Shown here: in pieces, positions 10,745 to 59,757 of the stretch
Numbering within the stretch: the first letter of the stretch is position 1
How the letters are laid out: each line of letters opens with the position of its first letter
From: Rhodanobacteraceae bacterium
GTDB taxonomy: Bacteria > Pseudomonadota > Gammaproteobacteria > Xanthomonadales > SZUA-5
Direction of reading: 5' to 3'
Length of the DNA: 64,000 bases
Assembly: GCA_031409855.1 (NCBI GenBank)
Contig: JANNYA010000226.1
Location: 5,192-69,191 of the forward strand
Position numbers and translations under genes: made by a program
Notes under the pieces: model-generated
The model's database searches: none
The model's input: only the letters and a program-made list of their open reading frames with translations
What the model was told of the DNA's origin: nothing

Positions 10745-10746
10745 AT

Positions 10747-29300: not shown

Positions 29301-29562
29301 AAATACGTCCATCCGGGCCAGTTGCCATGGCGTAAACCGTATTTTGCGGCAGGCCATCTGTGGAATTAAGCACCCGATAGGGGCTAAGCAAGGCACTATT
29401 GGGTGTTGCTGCGGCCCCCTGCAGCACGACAACTTCATTGGCAAATGCAGAGCAAGAAAGCAAACACCCCAGAAAAGCAAAAATTAGCGCGCCTACACGG
29501 TTAATTCGGCGCTGAGTCCGAATGACAGTGTTACAGACGACTCCTTTTTTCCAGCGCTGCAT
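26308..29562 (-). CDS. Ligand-binding sensor diguanylate cyclase (two-component-regulator propeller repeats + Y_Y_Y-like region + TM + GGDEF)
   Basis: Periplasmic propeller repeats are of the type GLPQNTVYAMATGPDGRIYVGTEDGLSRFDG. A TM helix WLAVIAAVALIYSGTWLG follows. The C-terminal GGDEF domain has DPLTGCYNRR, DIDYFKKINDEFGHAGGD and the active-site GGEEF. Confidence 0.85.
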   Translation of the reverse strand: MQRWKKGVVCNTVIRTQRRINRVGALIFAFLGCLLSCSAFANEVVVLQGAAATPNSALLSPYRVLNSTDGLPQNTVYAMATGPDGRIYVGTEDGLSRFDGVGFTRLSLTQAPREAEMPAAVNAIAVLGAQIWVGTDEAGLWHGDGERWQKIALNGAFEVGARSVTASATQTATATIGVTGIRTRSGGGVWVATTAGVFRCTGHNCVFQQVTAGLDVPEILEGRYHNQAVLWVAAEDQGVLAFEITPDANLAAVKAKFGIAQGLGNTLIRALANWQGALWIGTGRGLSRLRQDAAGQDEMTLWGRDDSAIAAGVFDLLPSLDSQQRPILHAATFGGGLIQMDAQDRWSALTVAQGLPENHLRSLLQSPGAGPIWIGTASSGIARADPGAWVAYTERHGLPHRSVIGVGKARFPDGVESYWLGTISGAVRLENGRWQAFLPSAIAARPIYDIAPRIAGGLWLASDVGLFNWDGKTLNKFSSDNSDLPGFTVLDIEQNGKTGALWLALRHGLAKIEGDQVSAIEGAAGARNLLYVDALAGGSMFVAGMDRLRWIKGDGSIQVIRQPCLAHPAIYSMALAAPAVGKPVEIWVGGRAGISRLRFDPGQGDSSKPDLRPHDVTIQCDQIDAATLGSNWIFEVKFDARGDLYAFGYNGALRLQVAALNALEPDLQRGSGRENPLKKLQIERFDQVDGLPDLEFNRGVMLDNYGRIWASNVGGAAIFDPKPQANLQPNAPLIFTALRVANKAYLANEVLPNGAELHARYRLLSYSRESRIRYRTQLLGLEAMPSVWTADASRNFARLPGGEYVLKVWAQDALGRPYGPIEHSFSVMLPWWRNPWLAVIAAVALIYSGTWLGRLRADALKRKALNLAQSLEAQVRTRTQELADANVQLETLALTDPLTGCYNRRCFYERYLHVPQNKPLLIILLDIDYFKKINDEFGHAGGDAVLVQFALRLQQACKPVFRMGGEEFMILEFAESAPAQQALLEKILRLISLQEFDLGGQKIRVTTSIGAACFSPPSEHTENQAQASHFEQVIRTADAALYQAKQAGRNRAELVEITTAIKISSGPAKFREQERSQEKHPSKD

Positions 29563-41624: not shown

Positions 41625-44531
41625 CTACTCAAAGCCGTTCTTTAGCAGTGCGTCACGGAAATAAGCTGGCCCGCCGCGAAATAGAATGCCACTGGTGCCA
41701 GAGCGATAGCTTCCTAACTGCCCGGCGTTGATGGTCAAACGCCAACGTTCGCTATCTAGGCGCTGTGCACCAGCAAACGTGTACCAATCAAGCGTGCTGT
41801 CATTGCCAGGGGTCGTCGGGCCGTAGTTGCGCCAAGTCCAATCTGCGGGATTGGTGAAAAAGCCATCATGAAAGCGCACCACGACATCGGTACGGGCGCA
41901 TCCTGGCAGCTCAAAACTGATGATCCCGCGATCAGAGGTGTCGTAGTTTTCGCCCAGCGGGCCGATGTCTTCTGGATAAATACGCGAATCAATGCCGTAT
42001 ACATCAACAAACTGATCGCAGCTGGCACCGCCGCGCAGCAACACATTTTCGCCGGTGGTCGAGGTGTGATTGGAACGACCGAGCGCATTTTCCGTGGCGC
42101 GCGCGGGTGCATCCGCCGACAAACCCTGGGTGCGAATCAGAAAGCCGGTGACGAATCGCTGCGTGCTGTCCAAAATGCCGTCACTGTTGCTATCGCCCGC
42201 ATTTGGGCCGGCGTTTTCCACCGTGTCCAGCGAGCCATCATTGTCCGTGTCGGGCAGTTGTTCAAACTCGTACACACCGGCGTTGGTGCCGGCACGAATG
42301 ACCGCTCCAGGCCCATCTTGCAGGGCAAACACCGCATCTGCTGGCAATCCGGTACTGATCGAACGCCAAATACCGCCGCCATTGGTGGTGCGAAAGACAC
42401 CACCGGGGTTGGAATAGGTGCCGGTGCCTGCAGCAACTAAAGTGTCGGGAAGCGAACTATCCACCGCAAGCGAAGTGATTGAGGCGCCCAACAGACCATT
42501 GCTGACATTAGTCCAGTTCGCACCGGCGTCCGTGCTTTTATAAACGCCGTTGAGGGGTGAGCCATCAATAATACCGGTACCGGTTGCGGCATAAATAGTG
42601 TTCGAGTTCGCCATGACCAAGGCGTAAACATTCACGGTGCTTCCGGCAAATGGGCCGCTCGTAAAGGTGGGTAAGCCGTTACTCGAATGCGTCCAATTTG
42701 TGCCACGGTTGCTGCTTTTGAAGACGCCGTTCAAATGCACGGTAGGTGTCCCCGTGCCGGAGCCGGAAAGATTGGTGGCCAGATACAGCGTTTGCGTCGC
42801 GAATACATGGGTCGTCAAAACTTTTCCCTGCAGCCTGGCATTGCTGGCAGCCGGGGATTGCGGCAAGCCAACATTCGCCAGGGCGAAGCGCGCCCCTGCA
42901 TCCGTCGATTTGTAGACGATCAGCGCATTGCCCGCAGTGACGCCGCCGCCGTTTCCCGTGTTGACGAGATACACCGTTTCCAAAGTGTTGCCAGTAGCGC
43001 ACGCCCCAATGATTGGCGGTGCAGCGCAGGACCTTGGGTCTAATTTGACATCGCTGACGATGCCCATTGGTGACACTGAGCCGACCATCGCTGGCAGGCC
43101 GCTGTCCAAAATACTCCAGCTAGATCCGCCATTCACGGATTTGTAGACGCCTTGGTTACCCGTCATCAGTCGCGATTCGGAAAAACCGACGGCGTAAAGA
43201 GTCTGGCCAGTCAGCGGGGTGGTAAAATCCACGGCAATCGCACGTATCAAACCAGCGCGGACGCTGCTTAAGTTGAGCTCACTCCAGCTTGAGCCAGCGT
43301 TGGTCGATTTGAAAACACCGTGGCTTTGCGCGGAACTGTCTGATTGCGCAGCGTAGAGCGTGGTGGACGTGGGGCTAGCGCTTGCGATTGCATAAACGCC
43401 CACCGAATTAAAGCCGGCGTTGATCGGCGTGAATGAAACGCCATTGTTGGTTGATTTAAACAAACCCGAAGCCTGCGAGGCCGAATACAGCACGTTGCTG
43501 CCGGGGTAGCCATTGTCACCGCTGATATCGGACATTTGCGGCTGTGTATTGGTGGGGCCCAACACCGAGGTAAAAGTAACGCCTGAATTGCTGGAGCGAT
43601 CCACGACGCTGACAAAACCATCGGTTGGATTATCGGTTTGCAATTGCAGAATACTGGTCGAGCTGACTGGGGAGATCCAGTTCACCGCGACTAGATTGCT
43701 GGTCAGCCAATTGGCACCAAAATCATTGCTGAAAAAACCGAGCGTTCCACCGCTTGCACGCAGGCTTGCGTAAAGTTTGCCCGCAGGGCTTGCCGAGATA
43801 GGCGCGAACTGCAGCGAAAAGACAGCAGACGCGGTACTGGGCGCGGTAAAGCTTGGACTAAAGTTCAGGCCATTGTTGCTGCTGCGATAAAACTGCACCG
43901 GCGCGGGCGCGGAACTGATGAGCGCCATATCGTTCGCTAGCCACGCCACTTTGGAAACCGTTGCGGTGCCCGGATAGCCACTGAATGCTGTGGGGAAGCT
44001 AAACGTGGAGCCGCCGTTTCGGCTAATCGCTAAACTCGCATTGCCGGTCGTGCTGGACAAAATCGCAACACCCACGACACCGGTGCTTTGCACGGTGACG
44101 GCGATATCCCGCACCGATGTGGCACCCGATGGCAAAGTGAAACGCGTGCGAGCCCAGCGATCGCCGCGGTTGGAACTGACAAACACTTGATTGATTGGAT
44201 CAGGGCTGCTGCGCCTAATGTTTAATGCAAGCACATCGCCGTTGTTTGGTGCGAGCGTAAAAAAGCCAGTCCAGCGAACCCCAGCAGGCAAACCAGCCTC
44301 AATGCGTTTCCAACTTAGGCCTGCGTTGTCCGAGCGAAACATGCCGCTTTGGCCCAAGGCATAAACCACATTGTTATTGCTCGGGTGCACCAAAATTTGC
44401 GCGGAAACGCCGCCGAAAGGACCGTTTCCTGTCCAAACGCCAGCGCCAGCATTGGCCCGCTCGACGGGAAAAATCAGCAACAGTGCCAAAACTAACGAAA
44501 CCAGATAGGCGCGAAACATGGTGAACTCCAA
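41625..44531 (-). CDS. Secreted BNR/Asp-box (sortilin-Vps10 / Ycf48-like) multi-propeller repeat protein with a TSP3-like Ca-binding segment and an unassigned C-terminal domain
   Basis: Signal peptide MFRAYLVSLVLALLLIFPVERANA. There are at least 8 Asp-box-type repeats, for example MFRSDNAGLSWKRIEAGLP, GVFKSTNAGSSWSELN, GVYKSVNGGSSWSILDSGLP, GVFKSSNRGTNWTHSSNGLP, GVYKSTDAGANWTNVSNGL and GVFRTTNGGGIWRSISTGLP. These are followed by DTDNDGSLDTVENAGPNAGDSNSDGILD. Confidence 0.75.
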   Translation of the reverse strand: MEFTMFRAYLVSLVLALLLIFPVERANAGAGVWTGNGPFGGVSAQILVHPSNNNVVYALGQSGMFRSDNAGLSWKRIEAGLPAGVRWTGFFTLAPNNGDVLALNIRRSSPDPINQVFVSSNRGDRWARTRFTLPSGATSVRDIAVTVQSTGVVGVAILSSTTGNASLAISRNGGSTFSFPTAFSGYPGTATVSKVAWLANDMALISSAPAPVQFYRSSNNGLNFSPSFTAPSTASAVFSLQFAPISASPAGKLYASLRASGGTLGFFSNDFGANWLTSNLVAVNWISPVSSTSILQLQTDNPTDGFVSVVDRSSNSGVTFTSVLGPTNTQPQMSDISGDNGYPGSNVLYSASQASGLFKSTNNGVSFTPINAGFNSVGVYAIASASPTSTTLYAAQSDSSAQSHGVFKSTNAGSSWSELNLSSVRAGLIRAIAVDFTTPLTGQTLYAVGFSESRLMTGNQGVYKSVNGGSSWSILDSGLPAMVGSVSPMGIVSDVKLDPRSCAAPPIIGACATGNTLETVYLVNTGNGGGVTAGNALIVYKSTDAGARFALANVGLPQSPAASNARLQGKVLTTHVFATQTLYLATNLSGSGTGTPTVHLNGVFKSSNRGTNWTHSSNGLPTFTSGPFAGSTVNVYALVMANSNTIYAATGTGIIDGSPLNGVYKSTDAGANWTNVSNGLLGASITSLAVDSSLPDTLVAAGTGTYSNPGGVFRTTNGGGIWRSISTGLPADAVFALQDGPGAVIRAGTNAGVYEFEQLPDTDNDGSLDTVENAGPNAGDSNSDGILDSTQRFVTGFLIRTQGLSADAPARATENALGRSNHTSTTGENVLLRGGASCDQFVDVYGIDSRIYPEDIGPLGENYDTSDRGIISFELPGCARTDVVVRFHDGFFTNPADWTWRNYGPTTPGNDSTLDWYTFAGAQRLDSERWRLTINAGQLGSYRSGTSGILFRGGPAYFRDALLKNGFE

Positions 44532-44650: not shown

Positions 44651-47600
44651 CTAGCGCGGTGCGGTTTGCCGTAAACGTTGCTGCAGCTCCGTTAGCAGTT
44701 CCCGCGCACGGGCGAGATCTTTTGCGGGCTCAAGCAATGTCTGCGCCTGTGCAAGCAATGCGCGTTTTTGCGCCGCATCACTTGCCAGATCAGCGGCAAG
44801 CATACGCAGCGCTGCGCGTTCCGTGCGCAAGCGCAAATCGCGCGCATCGGCGGTGGCAATCACACTTTCGCCAAATTCCAGCCAACGTTGGCTTTCGGCT
44901 CGATCATTTAACCTTAAATTGACTTCTGCCAAGCGCGCCGCAGCAGCAGCAAGCGAGGGATGGCGCTCGCCGACGCGCGTTTGGGCAAATGCCAGCGCTT
45001 GCGCCAGGGTGGTACGTGCCGCCGCTAGCTCCGTGTCGCTGTGCGCGTTGAGCAGCGCCAGCCGCCCTAGCCCAAGTAACGCGCCCGATTGCTGTGGGCT
45101 GTCGACGCCAAACATGGCCTTTTGTGCTGCCCAAGCCGATTGATAAAGCCGCTCGGCACGCGGCAAATCGCGTTCCAGCATTGCACACGCAGCGCGATTT
45201 GTCGCCAACGAGGCAAACAAAGGATGCGGTTGGGTGGCATCGAGCAGCTTGCGCAAAATGACTTCGGCGGCGTCATAGTGCGTGCGCGCGGCGCTAAATT
45301 GCCCTAGATCGCGCTCAACGTTGCCAAGATTCATCTGGGCGATGGCGAGTTCGGTGTGCAGCGGACCAAGCAGCTTTTGTCGCTTCTCTAATACCGCTAA
45401 AAAATGCAGGCGCGCGTCTTTGGCACGCCCCATTTGTAGCAGCGCAAAACCCAAGTTATTGTGTGCGGTAACAATATCGACTTCGCTGGCGCCGTTTTGC
45501 CGCAGCGCCAGAGTTTGCTCAAGTAATGGTGCGGCTTCGGCGTAGCGATTTTGGTCGTTATAAATGCTGGCAATAATGTTCATGGTTACCGCCCGTGCAA
45601 GCGGCGCCGCACGATTTTCTGCCTGCATCGCACGCACGCGTTCCAACACCGCAAGCGCTTCCTCAGGGCGCGCTAAATCGGCCAATATCCGCCCGCGCTC
45701 CAGCCCAAGTTCGCTGACTAGCTCCGCTTGAGTGCGATCCTGCTGCAAAATGCCGAGCGCTTTTTGTGCCTGATCCAGTGCGGCAAGTGAACGCTCAAGC
45801 TTACCCAGTGAGCGCAGGCTTTGGCTCATCTGCAACAGCAGCTTCGCTTGAACTGCAGGCGTTTCTGAAAGCAGCGCGGCTTTGTCAATGCCTAGCTCTA
45901 AAACTTCCTTCACCGTCGGGTCGCGGCCTTTGGCTTGGTTTGGATCTGCGGTGGCAAATAGGCTGCGCCAAAATTCGCTCAGCGCATTCGCGCTGCGCGC
46001 TTCGACATTGGCCCGATCCGTTTGCACCTGCAGCGCTTTTCCGCGCTCGTTCAAGCGCGCGGTTTGCCACACAGCAACCGCAAGAATCAATGACAGCAAG
46101 GCGGCAATCCAGCGCAAACGGCGCTTGCTGCGGGAATCCGCATCGGCACGCTCAAGCGCGGCGCGAGCGATCTTGCGCTCCTGCTCGGCCAAGGCTTGGG
46201 CTTGCATTAGTTCGCGCTCATTTCGCTCGCGCGCCATTTCTGCAGCAGCCTGCTCGTGCGCAAAGCTTGCGTCCAAAAATTGTGTCTCAGGCTCGGTCAA
46301 ACGTACCAAGCCACGCTCCCGTACCGGCAGATACTGTGCCAGCCGCGCACTGCTCGCTAAAAATCCAGCCGCGTCTTTGCCCTCAGCAGGTGCTTCTTGC
46401 CACTGCTTGGTCGCCTCGGCTAGCTGGCGTTGAAGGCGCAAATCCGCACGTGAGCCGGCCAGCCAATCTTGCAGCAGCGGCCAACTGCGCAGCAGCGCCT
46501 CGTGCGCTACTTCTACAGTCGCTAGCCTTTCGCCCTGGAATTCATTGGCGATCAGCGCACTGGCCTGATCGCGATCATGGCTCAGCAAACGCGCGTCGGA
46601 GTAAGCATTGATCGCTTTCTGTAGCGGCGTGGGGTCGGTGAACAGGGCATTGAGTTCATGCAAAAAAGCGCGTCTGCGGGTGTCTTCACGGCCTTCGCCA
46701 AGCGTGGTCAAACGCAGAAAAAGCTGTTGCGTGGCCAACTGCGCCGGTGCATCTAAAGCTTCAAACGTCGATTGCGCACGATTTGCCAGCGCGCCGCGAA
46801 TGCCGCCCATTTGGCGAAACGCGCTGAGCGTCAGCTCGAACCCAGCTCGGCGGCGAAAAAGCTCCGCGAGCGAGTACTGCAGCATCGGCAAAGCGCTCGC
46901 TTGCCCGCCCATGTCGGCCAAAATTGCCGCGACTAACCCTGGCTCAAAAACTAAGCCTGCACGTTTGGCGGGTCCAACGATCGCGCGCTCCAGCTCCTCC
47001 ATCGTCATCGCCGGAATCATTTCGGTACGCGCGCGCAACAACTCGGCTAAGTCCACATGCTGGAGCGGGCGATCAAGAAAATCTGCGCGCAGGGTAAACA
47101 CCGCGCGCAGCCTAGAATACGGCTCCAGCAGCGCGTTACAAAGCTGGGCAATAAAAAGTTCACGTTCACTGGTGTCTGTGCACAGCGTGAAAAGCTCTTC
47201 AAATTGATCAATCACCAACAGCAGCTCAGTTCCCGGTGCCAGGCTGCGATCTATCGCGCGGGAAAAACCGGTGCGTTCTTGCATCAAGGCATCAAGCCCA
47301 TCGGGCGCGATCGAGGCCACCCGCAGCAGGGCCGCCTGCAGCGCCTGCAAAGGCTGTGCGCCGGGCATGAAGGTGCTAATCAACCACCGATCCGCACCTT
47401 TGATCTGACCCGCACGCAGTGCCGGGATTAAGCCCGCGCGAACCACCGATGACTTTCCGCTGCCCGAGGCGCCGACGACAAAAAGCGCACGCGAAAGCCC
47501 CTGGGCGCGCGCCTCGACACTTTCGCGCAGGCGATCCAACAAGCACTCAATCATCGCTTCGCGGCCGAAAAATTGCCGCGCATTGCTTTCATCGAAGGCG

Positions 47601-48934
47601 GACAAACCCACGAAAGGGTTGTCCTGTTCGCTCAGCTCAGCTGAAATTGATGTGGTCAGCCCGGAATTTCCGGCATCATCGTGGGTGCCCATCCAGCCGG
47701 ATTTGGCCCCGCGCATTTCCGCTTCAAGCTCGATGACAAAACTGGTGGCGTCGGAAAAGCGATCCTCAGGGCTTTTTGCCAACGCTTTTTTCAACACTGC
47801 ATCCACGCGCTCTGACAGCTGCGGGGAAAACTCACGCACACTCGGTGGCGGCTGATTTAGATGTTGATAGATGATTGCCTCGCGCGTGCTGCCAGAAAAT
47901 GGCCGCCGCCCGGTAAACAGCTCAAACGCCAGCAGCCCGAGCGCGTAAATATCACTGCTCGCGTTGACCACAGTGCCGCGCAGCTGTTCGGGTGAGCAAT
48001 AGGCGATGGAACCTACAATCTCGCCAATTTGCGTGCGTCCACTATCGTTATCTAGTTTTTTCGCCACGCCAAAATCAGCCAGACAGCAATTACCTAGTTC
48101 ATCCAGCAAGACATTGGCAGGCTTGAGATCGCGATGCACGACACAAGCTTTGTGCGCGGTGCTCAGCGCCATCGCAACTTGACGCAAAATGGCCAGCGGA
48201 TTTGCCAGCGGCGTTGCTTTTTGCAGCGCTTGCGCGAGCGAGCCGCCCTTGAGCAGGCGCATCACCATAAAAGCAGCACCCGGTTCGCGCCAAAAATCAT
48301 AGAGCGGCACAATGCACGGGTGTTCAAGCTGGTCGACGAGCTCAGCTTCCGCTTCGAAGCGACAAATGAATTCGGGATCGTCGGCAAGCTCGGGATTAAT
48401 CACCTTAATCGCGACATCGCGCCCAACGCTGAGCTGCCTAGCGCGAAACACCGAACCAAAACCGCCTCGGCCGATTTCCTCGTCAAAGCGGTAGCCGCGT
48501 CGGGTCGTGCCGAGCAGGTGCACTTCGGCGTTCTGCGCTGGGCCAGCCAACGTGTGTTCTGCCAGGAAATCTGGTGCAACGTTGCCCGCAAAAGACTTGG
48601 CTGATGCCGGCTCGTGCTGGATCAGCGTAGTTGCACCGTCGTAGTCCGTGGCAAACCGTGCACTGTTGCGCGGCACCACGCGCGGAAAATGCCTTGGCGC
48701 ATCGGTTAAAAGCTGTTCATCTGCAAGCACATTCGCTAAGCGCGCCTGCACTTCTGGCTCAGGCTCAAGCTCAGCTTGCTCAAGCTTGCGCAACAAAAGC
48801 AAGACCACCTCAGCACGCTTGGCTAGCTCTTGCTGCGTAAGCCCCAACCGCGCACGTGCTGCGATCAAACGGCTAGCAAAACTCTCAGTGCCAGCTGGAT
48901 TAAAGGGGTGAATAGAGGTGGACAGTATCGACAT
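44651..48934 (-). CDS. HTH(XRE-like) - Hanks Ser/Thr kinase - STAND P-loop NTPase (nSTAND/NACHT-like) - TM - TPR multi-domain signalling protein
   Basis: The HTH is RLIAARARLGLTQQELAKRA (about 48719-48880). The kinase has IGRGGFGSVF, VAIKV, HRDLKPANVLL, DFGVAK and CSPEQ (about 47720-48496). The STAND N-terminal signature is NPFVGLSAFDESNARQFFGRE. Walker A is VVGASGSGKSS (47450-47473) and Walker B is LLLVIDQFEELF (47195-47224). The TM helix is RWIAALLSLILAVAVWQT (46061-46114). About 440 aa of TPR-like repeats follow to the C-terminus. Confidence 0.85.
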   Translation of the reverse strand: MSILSTSIHPFNPAGTESFASRLIAARARLGLTQQELAKRAEVVLLLLRKLEQAELEPEPEVQARLANVLADEQLLTDAPRHFPRVVPRNSARFATDYDGATTLIQHEPASAKSFAGNVAPDFLAEHTLAGPAQNAEVHLLGTTRRGYRFDEEIGRGGFGSVFRARQLSVGRDVAIKVINPELADDPEFICRFEAEAELVDQLEHPCIVPLYDFWREPGAAFMVMRLLKGGSLAQALQKATPLANPLAILRQVAMALSTAHKACVVHRDLKPANVLLDELGNCCLADFGVAKKLDNDSGRTQIGEIVGSIAYCSPEQLRGTVVNASSDIYALGLLAFELFTGRRPFSGSTREAIIYQHLNQPPPSVREFSPQLSERVDAVLKKALAKSPEDRFSDATSFVIELEAEMRGAKSGWMGTHDDAGNSGLTTSISAELSEQDNPFVGLSAFDESNARQFFGREAMIECLLDRLRESVEARAQGLSRALFVVGASGSGKSSVVRAGLIPALRAGQIKGADRWLISTFMPGAQPLQALQAALLRVASIAPDGLDALMQERTGFSRAIDRSLAPGTELLLVIDQFEELFTLCTDTSERELFIAQLCNALLEPYSRLRAVFTLRADFLDRPLQHVDLAELLRARTEMIPAMTMEELERAIVGPAKRAGLVFEPGLVAAILADMGGQASALPMLQYSLAELFRRRAGFELTLSAFRQMGGIRGALANRAQSTFEALDAPAQLATQQLFLRLTTLGEGREDTRRRAFLHELNALFTDPTPLQKAINAYSDARLLSHDRDQASALIANEFQGERLATVEVAHEALLRSWPLLQDWLAGSRADLRLQRQLAEATKQWQEAPAEGKDAAGFLASSARLAQYLPVRERGLVRLTEPETQFLDASFAHEQAAAEMARERNERELMQAQALAEQERKIARAALERADADSRSKRRLRWIAALLSLILAVAVWQTARLNERGKALQVQTDRANVEARSANALSEFWRSLFATADPNQAKGRDPTVKEVLELGIDKAALLSETPAVQAKLLLQMSQSLRSLGKLERSLAALDQAQKALGILQQDRTQAELVSELGLERGRILADLARPEEALAVLERVRAMQAENRAAPLARAVTMNIIASIYNDQNRYAEAAPLLEQTLALRQNGASEVDIVTAHNNLGFALLQMGRAKDARLHFLAVLEKRQKLLGPLHTELAIAQMNLGNVERDLGQFSAARTHYDAAEVILRKLLDATQPHPLFASLATNRAACAMLERDLPRAERLYQSAWAAQKAMFGVDSPQQSGALLGLGRLALLNAHSDTELAAARTTLAQALAFAQTRVGERHPSLAAAAARLAEVNLRLNDRAESQRWLEFGESVIATADARDLRLRTERAALRMLAADLASDAAQKRALLAQAQTLLEPAKDLARARELLTELQQRLRQTAPR

Positions 48935-48980
48935 TGCGCGAGCTTAGCCCATGCGCATTACCCTGAACACCACGGGCAAC

Positions 48981-51900
48981 TTACCGAACCCGCATTGCCG
49001 GATCCCCAAACAGCGTAATTGAATAATTCGATTCCATATGTTCCGGCGCATTCGTTGCTAAATCTGCCTTCGCCGCCTGCAATGACTCGCCTAAGGTATT
49101 AATTGCCACGCCGCCGCGATCATCAATACGGCCATCCTCGATCAGATCAAAAAAGCGTGTGCCCAGTGCCAAATGGCTGGCGTCTTCCGCCAAGCTGGTC
49201 GAGCCGATTACCGCTGCCGCCAGTTGATTGCTGCGCAGCATCAGCGCGTGGCTCATGGTGTCAAGATTCGGCATCACGAAATAGCTGTTCCAGCAGCCCC
49301 ACTGGCTGACGATGGCGGGCAAGCCGCTGCGCTGTAGGCTTGCTAACTGCGTGGTGTCGAGCAGATTTTGCGCAGCCCAGCGATTCGGGCTGGAGTGGCC
49401 GAGATAGTTGATCCAATCGCTGCCGCCTGCTAACGCGGCTTTGGCGGAAATTCGCGCATCGTTGATGCCAATCTCATCGCTCAAACCAAACTCCACGGTT
49501 TGATTTTGACGTAGATAACTCAGCAGTGCGCGGCTGTGCACGGCGAAATGTTCGCTAGCATTGGAGCCGCCCGCGCTGGCGAAAAATTTGGCTGCGGGTG
49601 TATCGCCGCGCTGCACGATTGAGCTGATAGCGCGGCGTAGCTCTTCCACCGTGCGCGCCGGAATGCGCCCGAGCGCGCGCTCAGGAATGCCATCGCTGTT
49701 GGCATCCGCAAATAGTGCATCGCTGGCGGCAAAACGCACGATCAGGCTAGCCACGCGATAAAAGGTAGGAAGATAACTTTGTGAGCCAGCGCCTAAATTG
49801 TCGTCATAGTCGTAACTATCACCACCGACCAGCAGCACGAACTTGGGATTGACTTGCGCTATTGCTTCGCGAATGGCTTGTGGGCTGCGTTGATGCGCGC
49901 TGCTTGCGGCATAGATCGCGTCGGTGCGCATGACTTTCACGCTGTAGCCTCGGCTTTGCTGTAGCGCGATTATTGGTGCCAATTCGGCCTCAAATAGCGG
50001 ATGCGTGACGATCAAATAATCTACCGGGGCAAAGTCGATTTGCGGCGCTGCGGCTGGCGCAAGCGCAGGCGTTTGCAGGTGCGCCAGATCACTGACATAC
50101 GCAGCGCTCACGCGAAGGTCGAGCGCGGCATTCGCAGCCACTTGATCGCGCTTAATCGTGCCATCAACTTGGCTCCAGATCGTGCTGGCGGTGTTGATGC
50201 CGGTGAGCGCAAAGCCGCTGACGGACTCAAAACTATTTCGCATCAGCGCATCGCCCGCGCTGTTGGCGCTGAAGCTGCCGAACGCCAATTCGCCGTCGCT
50301 CATGCTGGTGCTGCGCGTGTAGCTGACGCTAAAACCATCCAGCAGCACAACATCGGCGGCGTAGCCGGTATCGCCCAACACGCGCAGAGTCAGCGTGTTA
50401 TTTGCCTGCAGCTGGGCCGCGCTTAAGCTCAGCGTGATCGTTTGTAAGCTCAGGCCATCAAAACGGCGCTCGGCGATTGTTTCGCCGTTGAGCAAGAGCG
50501 CAACGCTGTGATCTGGCGTGTTGCCCGGGTAGTCAAGTCCGCCCCACAAATTCACTTTCAAATTCACCGCGCCGACAGTGCGCGCGGGCAAGCTAAAGCT
50601 GCGTGTCAATGCAACCGGTGCTGTGGTCGCGACTAGGCGTTGGTCAAACCAAGGGTCGTTACCCGGTGCGCTAAAAGTATATTCGCGATTCGGCGCTTGT
50701 TTGATTTCGGCACTCACGGTGCGCGCAAGCACAGCGCCATCAACAACCGCGCCAGAGCCCACATTTTGCGCCGCTGCCGCATCGTGCTTGATTTCATAAA
50801 CTCGTTCGCTGCCGTACAAGCTTGGCCGCGTGCTCGCAAGCCATTCCACGCTGCAGCCGGGGCCAAACGTTGCGCTTAAGCAATCGACAAAGCGCGGCAC
50901 AGGCACACTATTTTCTATGACCGCGATCTCGCCCGTATTTACGCCGCTAGCAAAACCCGCCGCGCTCATTTGCGCAAAGCTCACGCGTTGAATACCGGTT
51001 TTGCGCACGCTGGCAAGCACCGACGTCGCAGCCGTTCCGCGCGCACTGCGCACCGGCGTGGCGGCATTTGAGGCGCGAATTGCGGCCCAATTCAGCGGTT
51101 GATCGAGCGCTGGTGCGCCTACCGAGGCAGCGCCATTGGCGTCTGGTTTGATTTCTGGGTGAAAGCGCGAAACGCCTGTTAAATCAATATCTTCCAGACG
51201 AATTTCGGTGATGCCAGCGGCTTCAACAGTGCGCTGATAGGACTTCGCTGACATGCCATCGCCAGTACGATTGACAATCAAATCCTCATGCAGCGCGCGC
51301 CAGTCTTTCGTGCTATCCGCCCTGCCCCACAACCGATAACCCAAATGCCCGGCTTCGGTGGCGCTGCCAAATTGCACATTGAGCTGGGTGCCCGAACGGG
51401 TGGTGTTGACGAACGCTAGGCTGACGGGTGTGGTGGCAAACTCGCCACCAAAAATCGCAGTGCCGACAGTTTCTAGCGTGGTGTGACTGCGATCCGAACT
51501 TAGATCCGCATCTTCATCCACCCGCACCGTCATACTGACATTGGTGCCGCTCGCATTGCCCAAAGCGCAGCGCCGCAGCCAGCCGCCGTCATCCTCACCA
51601 CGGCTCATCAAGCCCGCAAAACCACGCAAATTCGCAGCCACCGTCGCGGTGCCCGCCGGGAACGCCAAATCAATGATCGAGCAGCTGCCGTTCACCACAT
51701 TGGCACTACTGATACTGGCACTGGTCGCAAGGCCAACCAAGCTGCCACCGGAAACCGCTAGCTGCGTGGAAACACCGGATTCAATCGCGATATAGCCAAT
51801 GGTTTCCGGGTTGAGCAGGCCGGGAATCGTGCCACCCGTATCGTCTGAGCTGGAACTTTCCAGCGCCGCTTCAAAACCGCTGCTGGACGCGTTGCGTATC

Positions 51901-54900
51901 GCCGTGGTTAGCCAAATTCTGGACACGCCGTTCAACGCCGGAATCCCGGGCAATGCGGGTACATTCAAGTTGCTGCCTTCATTCGGCAAACCCCAGCTTT
52001 GCAGCGTGCTCAACACCACCGGTGTCGCGCTAAAGTCAAAGCCCGCAAGTGTCGGGAAGTTCACGGTTTCCCAGCCCGCCGTTGGGTAACCCGCAAAACC
52101 GCCAAAGGTCGTGGCGCGTTGACTAGCTGAGCTGAGCACACTGCCAACTTTGACTAGCACGCCCGTGCCAGGAACATTAGGTGCAAGGCCGCGCATCGCC
52201 ACATCATTCGGTAAGCGATAGCTGCCCGGCAAAGCCGCCAACCAATGCACCGACATCGTGCCACCCGCACCCGTACAGCCGGCGCAACCTTGCGGCTCGA
52301 CTTGCGAGACATCGAAACTGCTGGCGTTGATATTGCTCAAGCGCACGGCTTTAGGATCGGCGTCGGTGTTATCCGGCTGCACAATCACAATTGGCGTGGC
52401 GCTAAAAGGCTGCGGGAAAAACACGCGCGTGGCGGCGTTTGCACCGGCACCGGTGGCGGGCAAAGTAATTGCGCCGACCGCCAATTTACGGCTCACCGGT
52501 GGCGTGCTGGTGCGTGCGATGAAATTGCCGATGGCGTACACCAAATCGGTGGCCTCACCCCCCATGTTAATGGTGGCGACTGTCGTCATGCCAAGTGTTT
52601 CCAGCACGGTCATGGTGCCATTGTTATTGCCGACGTAAACGCGACTACCGTTCGGGTGTATATCGACCCCTAGTGCCTTGCCGCCAGTGCTGCCGGTGGC
52701 AAGCACGCTTAAGCTCGCGGCGTCGATTTGCGACACGGACAACCCGTTGAAATTGCTGGCATAAATTCGCGTGCCATCGCTACTCACATTGACCGCAAGC
52801 GGTGTGTTGCCGATGCTGGCGCTGCCAACAATGGTATCGGTGGCGGTATTGAGCGCGGTCAAGCGCCCGGTGGCCTGACCATTGACGAAATACACACGGC
52901 TGCCATCTGGACTGATCGCCAAAGCATGACTGGTTGTTGCCACGTTCACTTGCGTGACCACGTTGCCTGGCAAGCTAACCACAGAAACATTCGTGGTGTT
53001 TGCGCTGCCGACATAGAGCTTGCTGCCATCGGGCGTGACGGCTAAACCCGTTGGTGCCGCGGCCACGCCAAACGTTGCCAGCACAGTATTGCTAGCGGTA
53101 TCAATCACCGACACTGTGCTGGCATTGCGATTGCTGACATACAGCCGCGTGCTGTTCGCCGATACCACGCCGCTCCAAGGCCCGGCACCCACGGCAATCG
53201 AAGTAATCAGGGTTTTCGTGGCGGTATTAATCACCTTCACGCTATTGCTTGCCTGATCAATGGCATAAGCGCGCAGGCCATTGGGCGCTACCGCCGCACC
53301 GATACCGGCACCACCGCTAATCGAATGGGTAATGCTGTTGGTGCCCAAATCCAGCACCGCCATTTGTCCGGTGTTATTGCGCGGCACATACGCAAAGGGG
53401 CCAACCAGCGTTTGCCCGCCCGGCGTGACGCTGTTGGAGGCTTGCGATGCGACACTATCGCCAACCGAATTGCGCGCGATCACAGTGCAACTCACCGGGA
53501 CGCCATTCGCCAGCCCTGTCACGGTGACCGGTGCTGTGTTGCTAAAGATGCTGGATGCGCCGCAGGTCACGGTATAGCCAATAATCGCGGCACCGCCGTT
53601 GTCGCTTGGTGCAATGAAACTCAAACGCACTTCGCCATTGCCAGCGGTGGCGGTGCCAATGTTTGGCGCACGCGGCACGATCGGTAAAACCGTGTGGATC
53701 ACCGCAGGCGAAACTGACGCACCGTGGCGTAAATCACCGCTGAAAGTCGCGGTTAAAGTTTTTGCCCCGACCGTCGTTGGCGTCAACAAGCATTGCCCAA
53801 GCCCGGTACCGTTCGTCATTGTACCTTCGCAGAAATCGGTGCCATCGCTAATGCGCATGCTGCCGGTGGTTGGTGCATTGCCACTGCTGGGGAGAACTTC
53901 GGCCTGAACTAAATACGCTTGGTCACGCGGCGAGGGGTTCGGTGCGTGGGTGATGATCGTGTTGGTGGTGGCAATCGGCGCGCTCAATGTGTATCGGTTC
54001 AAAAACACATCGCTCAGCGCGTCATTATTAGCGGCAATTAAATTGCTGCTATCGCTGCTAAACACGAGTTCACCGGTATCAGAAATGGCACGCGCGCTCA
54101 TTGTGGACAGGGCATTCGCTTGCGTTCCCAATTCGGTCATCGAGCCGCGCGCAATGGTGCCGGTCACCTGATCTTTCACGAACGCATCCGCGAGCCCATT
54201 GCTGTCGCCGCTGACCAAGTTGGTCATGGCGCAAACAAAGCCTAGGTTGCGCCCGTTGCTGCTGATTGAAGGCGCGCTGCAATCGCCGCCCAGCCCTTCG
54301 GCGCCGCCTGCATCGGTGCTGACGCGGGTGGTGGTATTGAGCGTTAAATCACGGACAAAAATATCGGTCACGCCGTTGCTGTCGCCAGCCACCAAATTGC
54401 TGGCGGCTGAGCTAAACGCGACAAAGCGGCCATCGTGGCTAAGTGCGGGGCTATCGCTTGCTGCGTTTGCCTGCGCCCCGAGCGTTGAGATACTGACGCG
54501 CACAAGTGTGCCGTCGCTTAGGGTTTTTACATAGATATCGCGCACGCCGTTGCTATCGCTGGCGATCAAGTTGGTCGATTCAGAAACGAACGCCACGCGG
54601 CTGGCGTCATCGCTGATTTGCGCGCTCAGGTTATTGCCATCGCCCAATCCGCCAGCAGCGTTGGTGCTGATGATTGTGGTGGCGTTGGTGCTGCGGTTTT
54701 TCAGGAACACATCTTCTCTCAGATTGTTGTCACCCGCGACCAAAGTGCTATCGGCGCTGTGGAAAATGACTAGATTGCCATCGCTGCTGATCGAGGTGCC
54801 TGCGCGCAACGCCGTACTGCTGATCTGTGTGCCCGCGCTGCTGGAGCTGACTAGATCAATCGTGCCAGTCACGCGCTGCTTGACGAACACATCGAATGCG

Positions 54901-57900
54901 CCGTTGCCATCGCTGGCCACCAAATTGCTGGCGGTACTGCGAAAGACCACCGACAGGCCATCGCCGCTAACGGTCGGGAAATCGCTAGCGGCATTGGCCG
55001 CCACCGCGCTCGCGCTTTGACTGATGCGGATGTTGCTGCCATCGTTTCGGTCGGTCAGGAAAACATCGCTGGACAGATTGGTATCGCCATTGATGAGCGT
55101 GCTGGACGCTGACGAATAACTAACAAAGCGGCCATCGCGGCTAATGCTGGCATCCATACTTGCGCCCTCGCTGCGTGCGCCAGGATTGGCGGCACTGGCA
55201 CGCACGCTGGCAACGCTCAAGCGATCCCGCACAAATATATCCACCTGCGCATTGCTGTCATTTGCCACCAAATCAGTCGCCGCAGACTGATAGCTAATGA
55301 ATCTTCCATCGGCGCTGATTGCGGGGAATTCGCTCAGTCCACTCAAGGTTTGCGTGCCATTCGCCAACACATTGATGCGTGTGGTCGCATTGGTTTGCCG
55401 ATCTTTGAGAAAGATATCGCTTAAAACGTTGGTATCACCTGGGACCAGATTATTTGCACTGCTGTAGAAAGCAATATAGCGCGCATCGCTGCTCATGGAT
55501 GCCAGCTGCGAGCCTGCCACACCATACACACCGGTGCTATTAGTGCTCACCATCGCAATCGCGCCGGTATTCATATCTTTCAAAAAAACGTCGTAGTTGT
55601 TGTTGACGTCATTGACTACCAAGCGCCGATTCAGCGAACTAAACGCGACATAGCGGCCATCGGCACTGATGGCGGGGCGGCCAAAACTCGGATCTGTGGG
55701 GTTTGCCCCGCCAACACCAGCGGCGTCGACGCTAACAATTTGGATCGCGCGGGTGAGTCGATCTTTGCGAAAAATGTCCACGGTATCGTTGCTGTCGCCA
55801 ACGTAAAAATTGAACGCCTGCGACTGGAACGCGACATAGCGGCCATCGGCACTCAGCACCGGATTGAAACTGCGAAAGTCGCCTAAAACGTCCGCGCTGT
55901 TGCTGCTGACGATATCGAGCGTGTTGCCCAGCAAGTCACGCACATAAATGTCATTGTGGATGCTGGTGTCACTGGGTAAAAGTTGCCCACCGGTTTGAAA
56001 CGCGACAAAGCGGCCGTCGGCGCTTAAACTTGGTGCCAACTGGTCAAAACCTGCACCCGTATTTGGCGTGCTGTCTTGGTTGCCGTTGGACTTCAGCGTG
56101 GCGCGCACGATGCTGCCGTCGCTTAAGTCTTTAACAAAAACATCGACCACATTATTGGTATCGCCAGACACCAAATTGCTAGCTAACGAACTAAATGCAA
56201 CAAAACGGCCATTCGCGCTTATCACAGGCTCAGCGCTGGCACCGTCGCTTTGCAGGCCGCCAGCGCTGGTACTAATTCGACGCACTAGACCGCTGCGCTG
56301 ATCGCGAATGAAAATATCCCGCAGCGCATTGCTATCATTAAGCACCAAGTCGCTGGCGCTGCTCGCAAAGACTACAAAGCGGCCATCCCCACTTAAGCTG
56401 AGCGCGTTGTTCACCGATGCACCGTTGCTTTCGCTGTAGCCCAATCGCGGGTTTGAAATAAGCACTGGGTAGCTTTCCGGCAAAACCGTTTGCACTACGG
56501 GTATTGAGGTACGCGGCGCATAATTTGCATCGCCCGGCCAGTTTGCGATCAAATTGCGCGCACCTGACGTGCTGGCGCTCCAGAAACATTGATTCGCAGG
56601 CAGCACGATCAGGCATTGATCGACGCCATCGCTGACCGTGATCGTGCCGGTTGGCGCTGGCGTGCTTAGGAAACTTGACACGTCCAAATCCACCGTAATG
56701 TGCACGCCTTGGCGCAAGCGGCTGGTAGCAGGCATATTGCGGACAATGGCAAAGTTCGCGACCGCTTGCGTGGCGGACACCTGACTGGCTGCCCAAATGC
56801 CGCTGGCGCTGTAGCTGGCAGTCAAGCTGCGCGTGCCAGCACGCAATGGCTGCAGCGTGCAGCTGCCTACTTCAGCTGCAGTCCCAACTAAAGCGACGCT
56901 ACAGCGCGCGGTTAATGGATCACTGGCTGGGCCGTCAAGAACCTGCACCGCGCCGCTTGGGAAATCGCCCAAATCCGGCGTTTCCCGCACGTTGAGTTGC
57001 ACCACAACCGGTGCCAGCGGCAGCGAAGGATTCGGCAAATTGCTGCTGATGCTGGTGGTTGTAGCGCGGCCGGCATTGACCAGATGACTGGTGCTCGCCA
57101 TTGCCGCCGGATGCGCGCCATCGCCGGAATAACACAGCTGCAGCGTCTTGTTGCCGACGCTGTTAAAGCTGATGGCGCAACTATTGCCGGGCAAAGTCAC
57201 CGTGCACTGATGCGCCGGATCAATCGGCGCACTGGCGCAATCGACAGCCTCTTTTACTGTGACGGTGCCAGTGGCAGAGGCGGCTGGATTTCCCGCTGGC
57301 GGCGCTAAAGTCCAACTCAAGGTGATCGGTGCACCATTGACCGACGGATCAGGTGTGTCATTGATGGCGCTGAACTCCACCGCGCCAGTGCTGATGTGGG
57401 TTTCGCTGTCGCTACCGCCATCAAAACCACCGTAGCCCAAGTAATCTGCCACCAGAGTTTTATTGCCGGTGCGCAACGGCGTCAAAATACATTCGCCGAT
57501 TTCGCCCGGTGTACCCAAAAGTGTCATCGTACAAAAAGCTGTTGTTGCCTCGTGGCGCGGGCCATCGCGCACTTCTACTAAACCTTTTGGCAAGGCCGCA
57601 ATCGGGTTGCCCGCGGTTTTGACCACCTGCGCGCGCACCGTGATCGGCGCTAGCAAACTCGAAGAATCGGGCAAGTCCGAAATGATGGTGGTGACGGTGT
57701 TTGGGCCGGGGCTCATGTACCAATTGACCGCCGGGTTAAAACGTATTCGCGCTTCAAACAGCGCCCAGTGATTTGGCGTTGCGGTGGATAACCTAAAGCT
57801 GCCCAAACTCGTCGTTGCAAATCCAGTGGAGTTATCAAAGCGCACCGCGATGGAGCAGGCAACGCCCTGTGGATTGACCACTCGGCCACGATATACCAAT

Positions 57901-58715: not shown

Positions 58716-59260
58716 GGCGCACTCACTTTCACAGCGTCAGCCCGCGTTTCTAAGGCCAGCAGCGCCTGCACCATCACACTCATCGCCTGCAAATCGGCGT
58801 TATCGGGCTGAACTTCGGCACCGGCGAGCACGCCGAATGCACTCTGTTTGATCGCATCCGCGCCAACGCCCGCTTCCAACACATACAAATCGGCGTCCTG
58901 CACCTGGAAAACCTCAACCCGCGCCACACTGCTGCGCGCATTTGCCGATGCCATTAACGCCGCGCGATCAATATGCCGCACCCGCTCCGGCGTGATGACT
59001 TGCCGCAACCCCGTCAGTTCGGTAGCCGTTAGCGTGACGCGAAAATCCCCGGCCGCGCGATAAAAGCTGGGCCGATGCAGCGCCACGCAGCCATTATCGT
59101 AAACCTGCAGCGTCAGCGTGCGATCCGCAACGCTGACTTGCGCTGCGGTAACACTCAACGCCAAAGTCGGCGCACCGATGGGCGTGCACGCGGCGAACGC
59201 CGACTTATACAAACCGAGCAAAATAATTGCGGATAGACAGCGGAACAGTGTTTGCGACAT
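58712..59260 (-). CDS. Hypothetical small secreted protein / probable lipoprotein; first gene of the giant-protein operon
   Basis: The signal peptide with Cys is MSQTLFRCLSAIILLGLYKSAFAAC. There is an ATGA overlap with the giant gene start (58712-58715). I recognised no family. Confidence 0.6.
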   Translation of the reverse strand: MSQTLFRCLSAIILLGLYKSAFAACTPIGAPTLALSVTAAQVSVADRTLTLQVYDNGCVALHRPSFYRAAGDFRVTLTATELTGLRQVITPERVRHIDRAALMASANARSSVARVEVFQVQDADLYVLEAGVGADAIKQSAFGVLAGAEVQPDNADLQAMSVMVQALLALETRADAVKVSAP

Positions 59261-59435
59261 GGCACAAGCCTCAATAATCCAGGCCGAAAGTTGGCCTTGA
59301 TGGGGCTTGCGTATTTTTTAGGGGGAAACTGTCAGGGGGTTGGAAAAAATATTTTCGCGGTCAGCGGGAACGCGTGCAAAATCCAGGAAACTGCGGGCCA
59401 ACAATGGATCATCGCGTGAGAAAGAAGCGAAACTG

Positions 59436-59687
59436 TCAATTCCCCAAGACTCCACGGGCGCGGCCGACTGCGGCGGTTCTGCTGAATGGTTGTAACAAGC
59501 CAGTTTCAGTCAACAGTTTTAGCTAGCGATGCAGAGAGCCAACAGAAACATCGGTCAAACGGGCGATCGCGCGCAGATAAAAATTTTCGTCAGGACGCAG
59601 CAGCAGCAATGCGAGTATCTTGCGGCGGTAGGCACCGAACAAAATCTCAATGAGCTGTGGGACTTCGGCAGTTTCAATTGATCTCAT
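59436..59687 (-). pseudogene. Small winged-helix (ArsR/MarR-like) transcriptional regulator interrupted by an in-frame TAG
   Basis: Hand translation from ATG 59687-59685 gives MRSIETAEVPQLIEILFGAYRRKILALLLLRPDENFYLRAIARLTDVSVGSLHR*LKLLTETGLLQPFSRTAAVGRARGVLGN*. The TAG (59523-59525) sits where wHTH proteins of this type normally have E or Q (..RELKRL.E.GLL..). The homology-like pattern continues in the same frame after the stop. Confidence 0.5.
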
Positions 59688-59757
59688 AATGAGAATAATC
59701 GTAGCAAAAATGAGAACAATTAGAGAGTGCGTGCAACTTTCCGCTTAACCACAATCT

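Follow-up and report, generated by a model that had tools for sequence, protein, structure and literature searches.

PknS of Xanthomonas citri (833 residues) is a receptor that joins its kinase through a membrane helix to TPRs in the periplasm. Its substrate is the extracytoplasmic function (ECF) sigma factor EcfK, and experimental work on its periplasmic domain has found that this domain modulates autophosphorylation (PMC13147305). Cytoplasmic kinases joined to periplasmic TPR or WD40 arrays have also been predicted in a survey of Planctomycetota kinases (PMC11032199). Here we describe a protein of 1427 residues that carries, besides a Hanks-type Ser/Thr kinase, a single predicted transmembrane (TM) helix and TPRs, an N-terminal helix-turn-helix (HTH) and a STAND NTPase of the nSTAND1 type. 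It is encoded on a 64,000-nucleotide stretch of DNA from a Rhodanobacteraceae bacterium (assembly GCA_031409855.1, contig JANNYA010000226.1), and the whole of this stretch is referred to below as the window.

The nSTAND1 clade was named by Kaur, Iyer, Burroughs and Aravind (eLife 2021; PMC8195603); that paper lists an S/T/Y kinase among the fused N-terminal domains and describes nSTAND1 as part of conflict systems of a soluble type, in which FGS/lectin sensors occur together with EAD adaptors and diversity-generating retroelements. A study of such retroelements annotated nSTAND1 proteins among their targets; some STAND targets were predicted to have periplasmic lectin domains, but the nSTAND1 example was assigned to the cytoplasm (PMC10907252). 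A 2026 survey treats prokaryotic STANDs as intracellular sensors of phage proteins and describes the antiviral members as three-part proteins, in which the STAND NTPase stands between an output domain at the N-terminus and sensors, mostly TPR-like, at the C-terminus (PMC13581612). For the window protein, we lean on balance towards a mechanism that, taken as a whole, would make it a single-pass inner-membrane receptor Ser/Thr kinase, with an nSTAND1 switch placed between the kinase and the TM helix.

Domain architecture and predicted transmembrane topology

The gene is an intact, uninterrupted single open reading frame of 1427 codons, and residue numbers below are those of its product. The HTH, the kinase and the NTPase lie N-terminal to one hydrophobic helix, and a TPR solenoid follows C-terminal to it (Table 1). 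Colinear homologues align at 40–61% identity across 97–99% of the protein length and, thus, the architecture is not due to chance. A preliminary description of this DNA had read the same domain order from motifs, each of which we find at the residues it named: GRGGFG (155–160), VAIK (174–177), HRDLKPAN (267–274), DFG (287–289) and SPE (314–316), followed by NPFVGLSAFDE (439–449), GASGSGKSS (488–496), LLLVIDQFEE (571–580) and ERNERELMQAQALAEQERK (903–921).

The kinase and the NTPase are the two best-conserved domains of the TPR-bearing clade, with mean pairwise identities of 66% and 64% in an alignment of 29 members (A1), compared to 57% for the juxtamembrane region, 42% for the TPR core, 38% for the HTH and 22% for the linker. 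The NTPase scores 382.4 bits against the Pfam nSTAND1 model PF20703 (cut-off 27.1) and covers positions 1–374 of the 379 in the model, while neither NACHT nor NB-ARC gives a Pfam match at E<0.1 in the window protein. The resemblance to an nSTAND1-type N-terminus noted in the preliminary description is, therefore, correct. Invariant residues in the 29 clade members include, in the kinase, G155/G157/G160, K177, E196, H267-R268-D269, N274, D287-F288-G289, P315-E316, D328 and R392 and, in the NTPase, G488, the Walker A lysine K494, the Walker B aspartate D576, E579, E580 and R616. We expect both enzymes to be catalytically competent. The kinase motifs, which had been described as intact, and the P-loop are present with their catalytic residues invariant, and the worry that the HTH or the kinase might be degenerate is not borne out, as both folds hold up by family profile, structure prediction and invariant kinase residues.

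The segment at residues 940–961 is the sole membrane-helix candidate of the protein, with a Kyte-Doolittle 19-mer value of 1.84; the next best (1.39) lies inside the NTPase. Its core, W942-IAALLSLILAVAV-W956, is short (15 residues), has a tryptophan at both ends and is preceded by the basic stretch SRSKRRLR. A hydrophobic segment is found ~440 residues past Walker A in 109 of the 120 best homologues, reaching values of 2.3–3.0 in those that bear WD40 repeats, and 60–100 residues past the end of nSTAND1 in 141 of the 150 closest representatives (50%-identity clusters from a library of 1.84 billion clusters, of which the closest 150 were annotated). The median uncharged length among 242 relatives is 21 residues. 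When lysines and arginines are counted over the 15 residues before and after the hydrophobic segment, these relatives average 4.76 on the N-terminal side versus 1.91 on the C-terminal side, with an excess on the N-terminal side in 232 of the 242; the window protein itself has six versus three. This positive-inside signature supports a single-pass, N-in, C-out orientation, which agrees with the need for the ATP-dependent domains to be cytoplasmic. Considered at the level of the family, this topology, with the repeats outside the cell, is likely. The preliminary description had likewise placed a single TM helix before repeats on the outside, a claim that stands on the conserved position of the helix, the positive-inside bias and the homology to receptor kinases discussed below.

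An AlphaFold2 model of residues 831–1427 has a mean predicted local distance difference test score (pLDDT) of 89.5 and a predicted template modeling score of 0.75. It consists, in order, of a 52-residue helix (881–932), a low-confidence break at the basic cluster, a 54-residue helix (942–995), the loop ADPNQAKGRDPT and 20 helices (1008–1424). The second of these long helices, which runs through the hydrophobic segment, packs against no domain. A second Hanks receptor kinase of the window (21696–24359, + strand), with a predicted TM helix at residues 353–371 and a C-terminal FGE-sulfatase/C-type-lectin-like domain, has a TM segment of likewise modest hydrophobicity (1.72) with tryptophans at its ends.

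A pair of cysteines ~20 residues apart in the C-terminal TPR region (A1 columns 1454/1455 and 1474) occurs in 22 of the 29 clade members and was considered as a marker of a periplasmic disulfide. We regard it as weak, as neither the window protein, where it would fall at about residues 1313 and 1331, nor the closest relative of that protein, P0002, has the pair, and the cytoplasmic domains also have conserved cysteines. At one homologous locus (L090; homologous loci are numbered with L and their proteins with P) a DsbA gene lies directly downstream of the kinase gene, though the member at that locus lacks the cysteine pair.

Pfam TPR families match residues ~1115–1223 (TPR_12, E=3.5e-21; TPR_10, E=5.9e-13), and a Foldseek search with the TPR model returned LGN/Pins, kinesin light chain, OGT and NprR at E ~1e-8, i.e. 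only generic peptide-binding TPR superhelices. More informative matches came from a search with residues 925–1427, which align with the C-terminal part of kinase-TM-TPR proteins of ~800–870 residues at 24–31% identity over 50–88% of the query; this search missed the clade of the window protein itself, its word index being swamped by TPR proteins. The matches come from Gemmatimonadota, Phycisphaerae, Woeseiaceae and others, and include P0300, labeled 'Woeseiaceae bacterium', a distant kinase-TM-TPR protein that has only the sensor module in common. They share a ..DP...G..T.RE.LD motif after the TM helix (REVSAFLVDLFQVSDPGRARGATVTARELLDAGA in a kinase-TM-TPR example, ALSEFWRSLFATADPNQAKGRDPTVKEVLELGI in the window protein). 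On this evidence, the window protein and ordinary kinase-TM-TPR receptor kinases have a homologous helix-plus-TPR module. The window protein may then be read as a kinase-TM-TPR receptor into which nSTAND1 was inserted before the TM helix, with an HTH added in front. An equally good reading is a kinase-nSTAND1-TM-WD40 protein in which TPRs took the place of the WD40 sensor. The TPR region is the fastest-evolving folded part of the protein, its last 190 residues falling to a mean pairwise identity of 26%; the rapid evolution of this end (26–42%), compared to 64–66% for the kinase and NTPase, supports a role as the sensor.

The HTH is more difficult to recognize. HTH_3 matches the full window protein with E=0.069 (Pfam) and, with the isolated N-terminus, both HTH_31 (25.7 bits, cut-off 27) and HTH_3 (18.7 bits, cut-off 23) stay slightly under threshold. 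The closest NCBIfam models are archaeal aMBF1 (E=1e-6) and phage RstR (E=6e-6). Among solved structures, the best match to a profile built from 15 homologous N-termini (alignment A2) is an XRE-type domain (E=2.9e-14); MBF1, 434 repressor, P22 C2, SinR and HipB also match, each below 1e-3, with E-values of 3e-14 to 1e-6 across the XRE/MBF1/434-repressor domains; HTH_31 is matched across all 15 clade N-termini, with the score of the window protein itself under the cut-off. In an AlphaFold2 model of residues 1–440, five helices (13–29, 34–40, 45–52, 60–70 and 74–77; pLDDT 81–97) are followed by disorder at 81–133 and then by a confidently predicted kinase. The XRE-like fold is, therefore, weak when judged from the window sequence alone and secure, by profile and model, for the family.

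Recognition helix 3 (residues 45–52) reads LLLLRKLE and is mostly hydrophobic in the clade (consensus PLxLxKLER); in a manual alignment, the Gln-Gln-Ser with which 434 repressor reads bases corresponds to Leu-Leu-Leu. The hydrophobic nature of this helix makes DNA binding doubtful. A palindrome and shared k-mer search upstream of eight homologues gave no conserved palindrome or operator-like inverted repeat and yielded only the TAAGCT hexamer discussed below, and the HTH is among the least conserved of the folded domains. The domain may bind DNA, but at least as probable is a role in protein docking or autoinhibition. Of the DNA-binding output proposed in the preliminary description, the XRE-like fold stands, whereas the DNA binding itself is in doubt with Leu-Leu-Leu at the base-reading positions, a mostly hydrophobic helix throughout the clade and MBF1 among the matching models.

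Family distribution and genomic neighborhood

A search with the full-length protein scored only 8000 candidates, of which 4871 reached E<=1e-10. Pkinase and nSTAND1 are present in every one of the best 120; about 35 of them (P0002–P0036, 40–61% identity) end in TPR, and the remainder, of 1500–2400 residues, end in WD40 propellers. Many of the WD40 relatives carry the label 'WD40 repeat protein / serine/threonine protein kinase / DNA-binding XRE family transcriptional regulator' (JGI). With residues 438–1000 as query, 42,866 representatives were retrieved at E<=1e-3, of which 15,047 reached E<=1e-30; among the closest 150, 118 have the kinase, 29 of these also have the HTH (leaving 89 without it), 135 end in WD40 and five in TPR. 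Scanning species-representative genomes with this one sequence yielded no relatives. With A1 as query and one genome per species, at least 576 loci were found, the best 80 of which belong to Chloroflexota (Anaerolineae, Promineifilaceae, Phototrophicaceae), Actinomycetota (Acidimicrobiia and others), Myxococcota, Acidobacteriota and one cultured alphaproteobacterium, Ruegeria arenilitoris; no member of the TPR clade is among these best 80 of at least 576. One clade member, P0036, is labeled 'Xanthomonadales bacterium'.

The window protein belongs to a rare TPR-bearing branch, apparently gammaproteobacterial, of a widespread design. The transmembrane NLR-like switch is a property of a very large, cataloged family and is not unique to the window locus. 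The architecture, presented at first as unusual, is thus common, with thousands of relatives, although we found no characterization of it. Clustering of the neighbors at 80 WD40-type loci gave no conserved partner gene. The Ruegeria relative (strain HKCCD6430; NZ_WQCA01000005.1, around 26.1–30.5 kb) is a kinase-nSTAND1-TM-WD40 protein of 1471 residues with seven arginines before its TM helix, and is flanked by a gene with FHA and cyclase-like domains and by a PP2C phosphatase gene (positions 5493–12275 of locus L086).

In the window, the kinase gene is one of four co-directional genes, which encode the 182-residue, 3244-residue, kinase and BNR/Sortilin proteins (Table 1). The set lies between an amidohydrolase and an M20 peptidase gene upstream (59.8–62.5 kb) and rsmI, lpoA, yraN-family and epmA-like genes downstream (37.4–41.5 kb), with rsmI-lpoA-yraN in a gammaproteobacterial order. 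The kinase gene starts 46 bp past the preceding stop codon, and the BNR/Sortilin gene follows 119 bp further on, or 131 bp when measured to its probable start at Met5. A full-length orthologue of the BNR/Sortilin gene is directly downstream in L001, L002 and L007, and upstream and divergent in L091, so that, with the window, it is present at five of 12 informative loci. All five proteins are colinear and have a signal peptide. Identities to the window copy in L001, L002, L007 and L091 are 59, 40, 35 and 36% for the BNR/Sortilin protein and 61, 50, 46 and 49% for the kinase protein; the two series run broadly in parallel. The BNR/Sortilin protein is, on its conserved position and co-divergence, a probable functional partner. 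A more distant BNR paralogue lies 6 kb from the kinase homologue in L003.

The preliminary description had pointed to the co-encoded secreted proteins as sources of ligands for the TPR domain; of these, only the downstream BNR/Sortilin protein is a conserved neighbor. The 182-residue and 3244-residue genes are absent at all 11 homologous loci examined. In L002, which shares the upstream M20 peptidase and amidohydrolase genes with the window, the M20 peptidase gene directly precedes the kinase gene, and the pair in the window, therefore, looks inserted. The 3244-residue C25-peptidase gene, absent together with the 182-residue gene from those loci, was ruled out as part of the system. Its product also contains a metzincin-type zinc motif (HEMLHGQGLAH) at residue 115, PD40/YVTN-type propellers and Big_3_5 domains. 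Large secreted proteins also adjoin the homologues in L001 (an RHS protein of 1698 residues) and L006 (>2911 residues).

The region 59261–59435, suggested earlier as an operator for the HTH, belongs to the upstream gene pair that is missing beside homologues, and holds the remnant of a broken winged-helix gene; the corresponding reading frame is probably a pseudogene remnant, and an operator role for the kinase gene is unlikely. Closer to the gene, in the window as well as in L001 and L006, a spacing of 6–7 nt separates the start codon from the hexamer TAAGCT(C), which lies at −12 or −13; L092 has TAAACT at about −14. Conservation of intergenic DNA by descent is not expected, since the proteins are only 40–61% identical. 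The spacing may fit a −10 element giving a leaderless mRNA or, alternatively, the hexamer may be a regulatory site. Elsewhere, GTTAAGCT is found at −46 in L003 and L089, and a tandem duplication containing inverted repeats, GGCAAACAATT.CCT.TTAATTCGTTTGCC, twice, lies at ~2840–2916 of L007, upstream of the P0012 gene; the latter could be an operator of that lineage, not common to the other loci. In a promoter and terminator scan of 41.4–60 kb, shuffled sequence yielded more sites than the DNA itself, in which no site fell within an intergenic gap. No Rfam family was found within the window.

Other homologues have ccm genes, a mur ligase gene, recA, the glycyl-tRNA synthetase gene and gatCAB as neighbors. 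A mobile defense island is unlikely, as the neighbors are mostly housekeeping genes and the locus is syntenic with that of the 50%-identical homologue in L002. Further away in the window are an autotransporter with DUF11 repeats (15341–19357) and, just downstream of it, a caspase (Peptidase_C14) protein with Sel1 repeats (19379–21451, + strand); with the second receptor kinase mentioned above, the region 19379–24359 is rich in eukaryote-like signaling proteins. Another large membrane sensor, of 1084 residues, is encoded at 26308–29562 (− strand); it starts with a signal or anchor sequence, has a second hydrophobic stretch around residue 837 and ends in a GGDEF domain. In L003, the gene immediately after the kinase homologue encodes a PAS-GGDEF protein.

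Table 1. Coordinates in the window of the kinase gene, the regions of its product and the adjacent features.
Feature	Position	Strand	Evidence and remarks
HTH-kinase-nSTAND1-TM-TPR gene	44651..48934	-	Open reading frame list and translation; 1427 residues plus stop, ATG start
XRE/MBF1-type HTH, residues ~19-72 (modeled helices 13-77)	48719..48880	-	NCBIfam, family profile, AlphaFold2
Disordered, unconserved linker, residues 73-146	48497..48718	-	22% clade identity; AlphaFold2 pLDDT <50 at 81-133
Hanks-type Ser/Thr kinase, residues 147-405	47720..48496	-	Pfam Pkinase, residues 148-394, E=2.7e-50; 66% clade identity; AlphaFold2 pLDDT ~90
nSTAND1 NTPase module, residues 438-848	46391..47623	-	PF20703, residues 440-848, E=4.7e-114; 64% clade identity
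Long cytoplasmic helix, residues 881-932	46139..46294	-	AlphaFold2 single 52-residue helix, pLDDT 71-92; includes ERNERELMQAQALAEQERK, first described as coiled-coil-like
Predicted single TM helix, residues 940-961, core W942-W956	46052..46117	-	Hydrophobicity, family conservation, positive-inside bias
Juxtamembrane stalk helix and ADPNxAKG..TV.EVLD motif, residues 962-1007	45914..46051	-	57% clade identity
TPR solenoid, 20 helices, residues 1008-1424, predicted extracytoplasmic sensor	44663..45913	-	Pfam TPR, AlphaFold2 pLDDT >93
TAAGCT, −10-like hexamer, possible own promoter	48941..48946	-	6 nt upstream of ATG; position conserved in L001 and L006
Secreted BNR/Sortilin-type propeller protein, 964 residues from Met5	41625..44519	-	Sortilin-Vps10 E=4.7e-15 and BNR; signal peptide MFRAYLVSLVLALLLIFPVERANA
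Secreted 3244-residue C25-peptidase protein	48981-58715	-	C-terminal C25 (gingipain/PorU-like) domain
Secreted 182-residue protein, no family match	58712-59260	-	4-bp overlap with the 3244-residue gene
Broken ArsR/AbiEi-like winged-helix open reading frame	59261-59757	-	MRSIETAEVPQLIEILFGAYRRKILALLLLRPDENFYLRAIARLTDVSVGSLHR, stop, LKLLTETGLLQ continuation read through the stop

Proposed mechanism and alternative explanations

In the mechanism we propose, the groove of the periplasmic TPR solenoid would bind a protein or peptide ligand, for which the BNR/Sortilin protein, or its release product, is the best candidate. The signal would pass through the continuous stalk/TM helix (942–995) and the 52-residue cytoplasmic helix (881–932) to the nSTAND1 module, which would exchange nucleotide and then oligomerize. 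Clustered kinases could then trans-autophosphorylate on the activation loop, at Thr300 of a conserved SGRT motif, and go on to phosphorylate cytoplasmic substrates. The XRE/MBF1-like domain, held on a disordered tether of ~60 residues, might serve as a clustering-dependent, membrane-tethered DNA binder; alternatively, and more likely given its hydrophobic recognition helix, it would be a protein-docking or autoinhibitory module. The FHA and PP2C genes that flank the Ruegeria relative argue that kinase signaling is a real output of the family. The role of the system is likely to be envelope or environment sensing from a chromosomal, vertically inherited locus, and not mobile anti-phage defense.

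Several points weigh against this mechanism. We infer the ligand, the substrates, the oligomerization and the direction of the signal alike, and we know of no precedent for a STAND module that is controlled through a single membrane helix. A literature search, incomplete in its coverage, returned no paper on this architecture or topology and no experiment on any member. The BNR/Sortilin partner gene is missing in more than half of the loci. The TM helix of the window protein, taken alone, looks marginal: a crude Hessa-type sum is favorable for the 15-residue core (−2.1 kcal/mol) but positive for a 19-mer (+2.6, the next best 19-mer elsewhere giving +7.6), the hydrophobicity of the core is only 1.4–2.0 throughout the TPR clade and 10 of 35 clade members fall under the usual threshold of 1.6.

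Among the alternatives, we consider it unlikely that the protein is a counter-invader system, either anti-phage or of another conflict type, in which the outside repeats would detect an invader or damage to the envelope and the kinase would act as a toxic or abortive effector. The nSTAND1 clade was defined within predicted conflict systems, with an S/T/Y kinase among its N-terminal effectors (PMC8195603), and the candidate-defense model C3a189 'kinase' matches residues 154–1119 of the window protein. The kinase domain also matches PADLOC PD-T4-6 (E=1.6e-85) and mad6 (E=4.9e-69), but, of the 25 matches listed among 35, all to kinase models, every one other than C3a189 spans only the generic kinase domain (~137–458), so that these two were discarded as evidence of defense, and none of the 25 is an Avs or NLR model. 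Relatives abound in filamentous or multicellular Chloroflexota, Actinomycetota and Myxococcota, the caspase-Sel1 and kinase-FGE-sulfatase proteins are encoded in the same window, and most relatives stand alone without conserved neighbors, as is typical of single-gene defense proteins. However, the window locus sits between the rsmI-lpoA-yraN-epmA-like and M20/amidohydrolase genes in synteny with a 50%-identical homologue, other homologues are found among ccm, mur, recA, tRNA-synthetase and gatCAB genes, and the conserved secreted partner, together with the FHA and PP2C neighbors, points to ordinary phospho-signaling.

A membrane-tethered one-component transcription factor in the style of ToxR or CadC, with the HTH as its main output and the kinase and NTPase tuning it, seems improbable to us. 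The HTH is confidently XRE-like in fold; most members of the TPR clade keep it, as do 29 of the 150 closest representatives, and soluble STAND transcription factors, such as MalT and AfsR, do exist. Its absence from 89 of the 118 kinase-bearing representatives, however, marks the HTH as accessory, and its low conservation (38%), the leucines at the positions with which 434 repressor reads bases and the lack of a conserved palindrome upstream of the eight homologues examined all argue in the same direction. Least credible is a soluble STAND protein with cytoplasmic TPRs, in which the hydrophobic helix would be buried or used for oligomerization: it would account for the marginal hydrophobicity (1.84 here, and below 1.6 in the clade members noted above), the short uncharged core with its positive 19-mer sum, the absence from the window protein of the cysteine pair that might mark an oxidizing compartment and the TPR_12-type repeats, which are the usual sensors of soluble STAND proteins (PMC13581612), but the segment aligns with clear TM helices (2.3–3.1, ~21–24 residues) in the WD40 relatives and P0034–P0036, has tryptophans at both ends and a basic cluster on its N-terminal side, packs against no domain in the AlphaFold2 model and belongs to a module homologous to receptor kinases with the same helix and following motif.

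Returning to the receptor kinase with an nSTAND1 switch, a broader proposal, which we make only tentatively, is that the family may form an unrecognized class of transmembrane NLR-like receptors, with outside repeats controlling, through the single TM helix, the nucleotide state of the STAND module and its oligomerization, and thereby the fused kinase; in the gammaproteobacterial TPR clade, the BNR/Sortilin protein would be a co-receptor or source of ligand. If so, these bacterial proteins would unite the 'receptor-like kinase' and 'NLR' designs, which in plants belong to separate proteins. A STAND switch could then be driven across a bilayer, where STAND and NLR proteins are otherwise treated as intracellular receptors, and receptor kinases, mostly explained by ligand-induced dimerization, would gain a threshold step that depends on ATP. 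Members of the family are abundant among filamentous and multicellular bacteria, and the culturable Ruegeria arenilitoris HKCCD6430 offers a usable experimental model. For the window itself, the outcome would be a chromosomal two-gene sensing module of receptor kinase and secreted BNR/Sortilin protein, and not a new kind of system.

Comparison with known systems

The kinase-nSTAND1-TM-WD40 proteins, which are represented by database entries only, share with the window protein the kinase, nSTAND1, the post-NTPase helix, the position of the TM helix and, in a subset, the HTH, at 41–49% identity over residues 1 to ~950. They differ in having one or more WD40 propellers outside, a far more hydrophobic TM helix, a distribution mostly in monoderm or filamentous phyla and no conserved BNR/Sortilin neighbor. 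With respect to the nSTAND1 clade, the window NTPase is a full-length, high-scoring member with a C-terminal repeat array, but has a predicted TM helix between the NTPase and the repeats, an arrangement of which no mention was found in the part of the text of PMC8195603 on which we draw.

The PknS-like class (~800–870 residues) also has a Hanks kinase, one TM helix and TPRs, the homology being read from metagenomic proteins of the same architecture and not from PknS itself. In contrast to the window protein, which has ~535 residues between kinase and TM helix, it has only a short juxtamembrane linker there, and neither a STAND NTPase nor an HTH. PknS is paired with the ECF43 sigma factor EcfK, whereas no sigma-factor domain is encoded by the genes neighboring the window gene. 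Only L006 has an ECF-type sigma gene (12288–12884, Sigma70_r4_2), which lies directly downstream of the gene for P0034 and recalls the PknS-EcfK pairs. The NTPase insertion and the missing sigma partner, read from sequence, place the window protein outside the simple PknS-like class.

The tripartite logic of Avs, bNACHT and eukaryotic NLR proteins resembles that of the window protein, but those proteins respond to cytoplasmic ligands through nuclease, SIR2 or TIR effectors, whereas the window protein has a predicted outside sensor and a kinase output. MalT and AfsR (SARP-NB-ARC-TPR) are soluble proteins that combine a DNA-binding domain, a STAND switch and TPR-type repeats, and AfsR is controlled by the Hanks kinase AfsK, a separate protein. 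They differ from the window protein in being cytoplasmic, without a membrane helix, with LuxR or SARP winged-helix folds and NTPases of other clades, and in that their kinase is separate. ToxR and CadC, of ~300–500 residues, are likewise built from a cytoplasmic DNA-binding fold at the N-terminus, one membrane helix and a sensor in the periplasm; their fold is an OmpR-type winged helix instead of XRE, and they contain neither a kinase nor an NTPase. Thus, the window protein is only an analogue of MalT/AfsR, ToxR/CadC and Avs, while its profile matches and invariant residues give it full membership in both nSTAND1 and the Hanks kinases.

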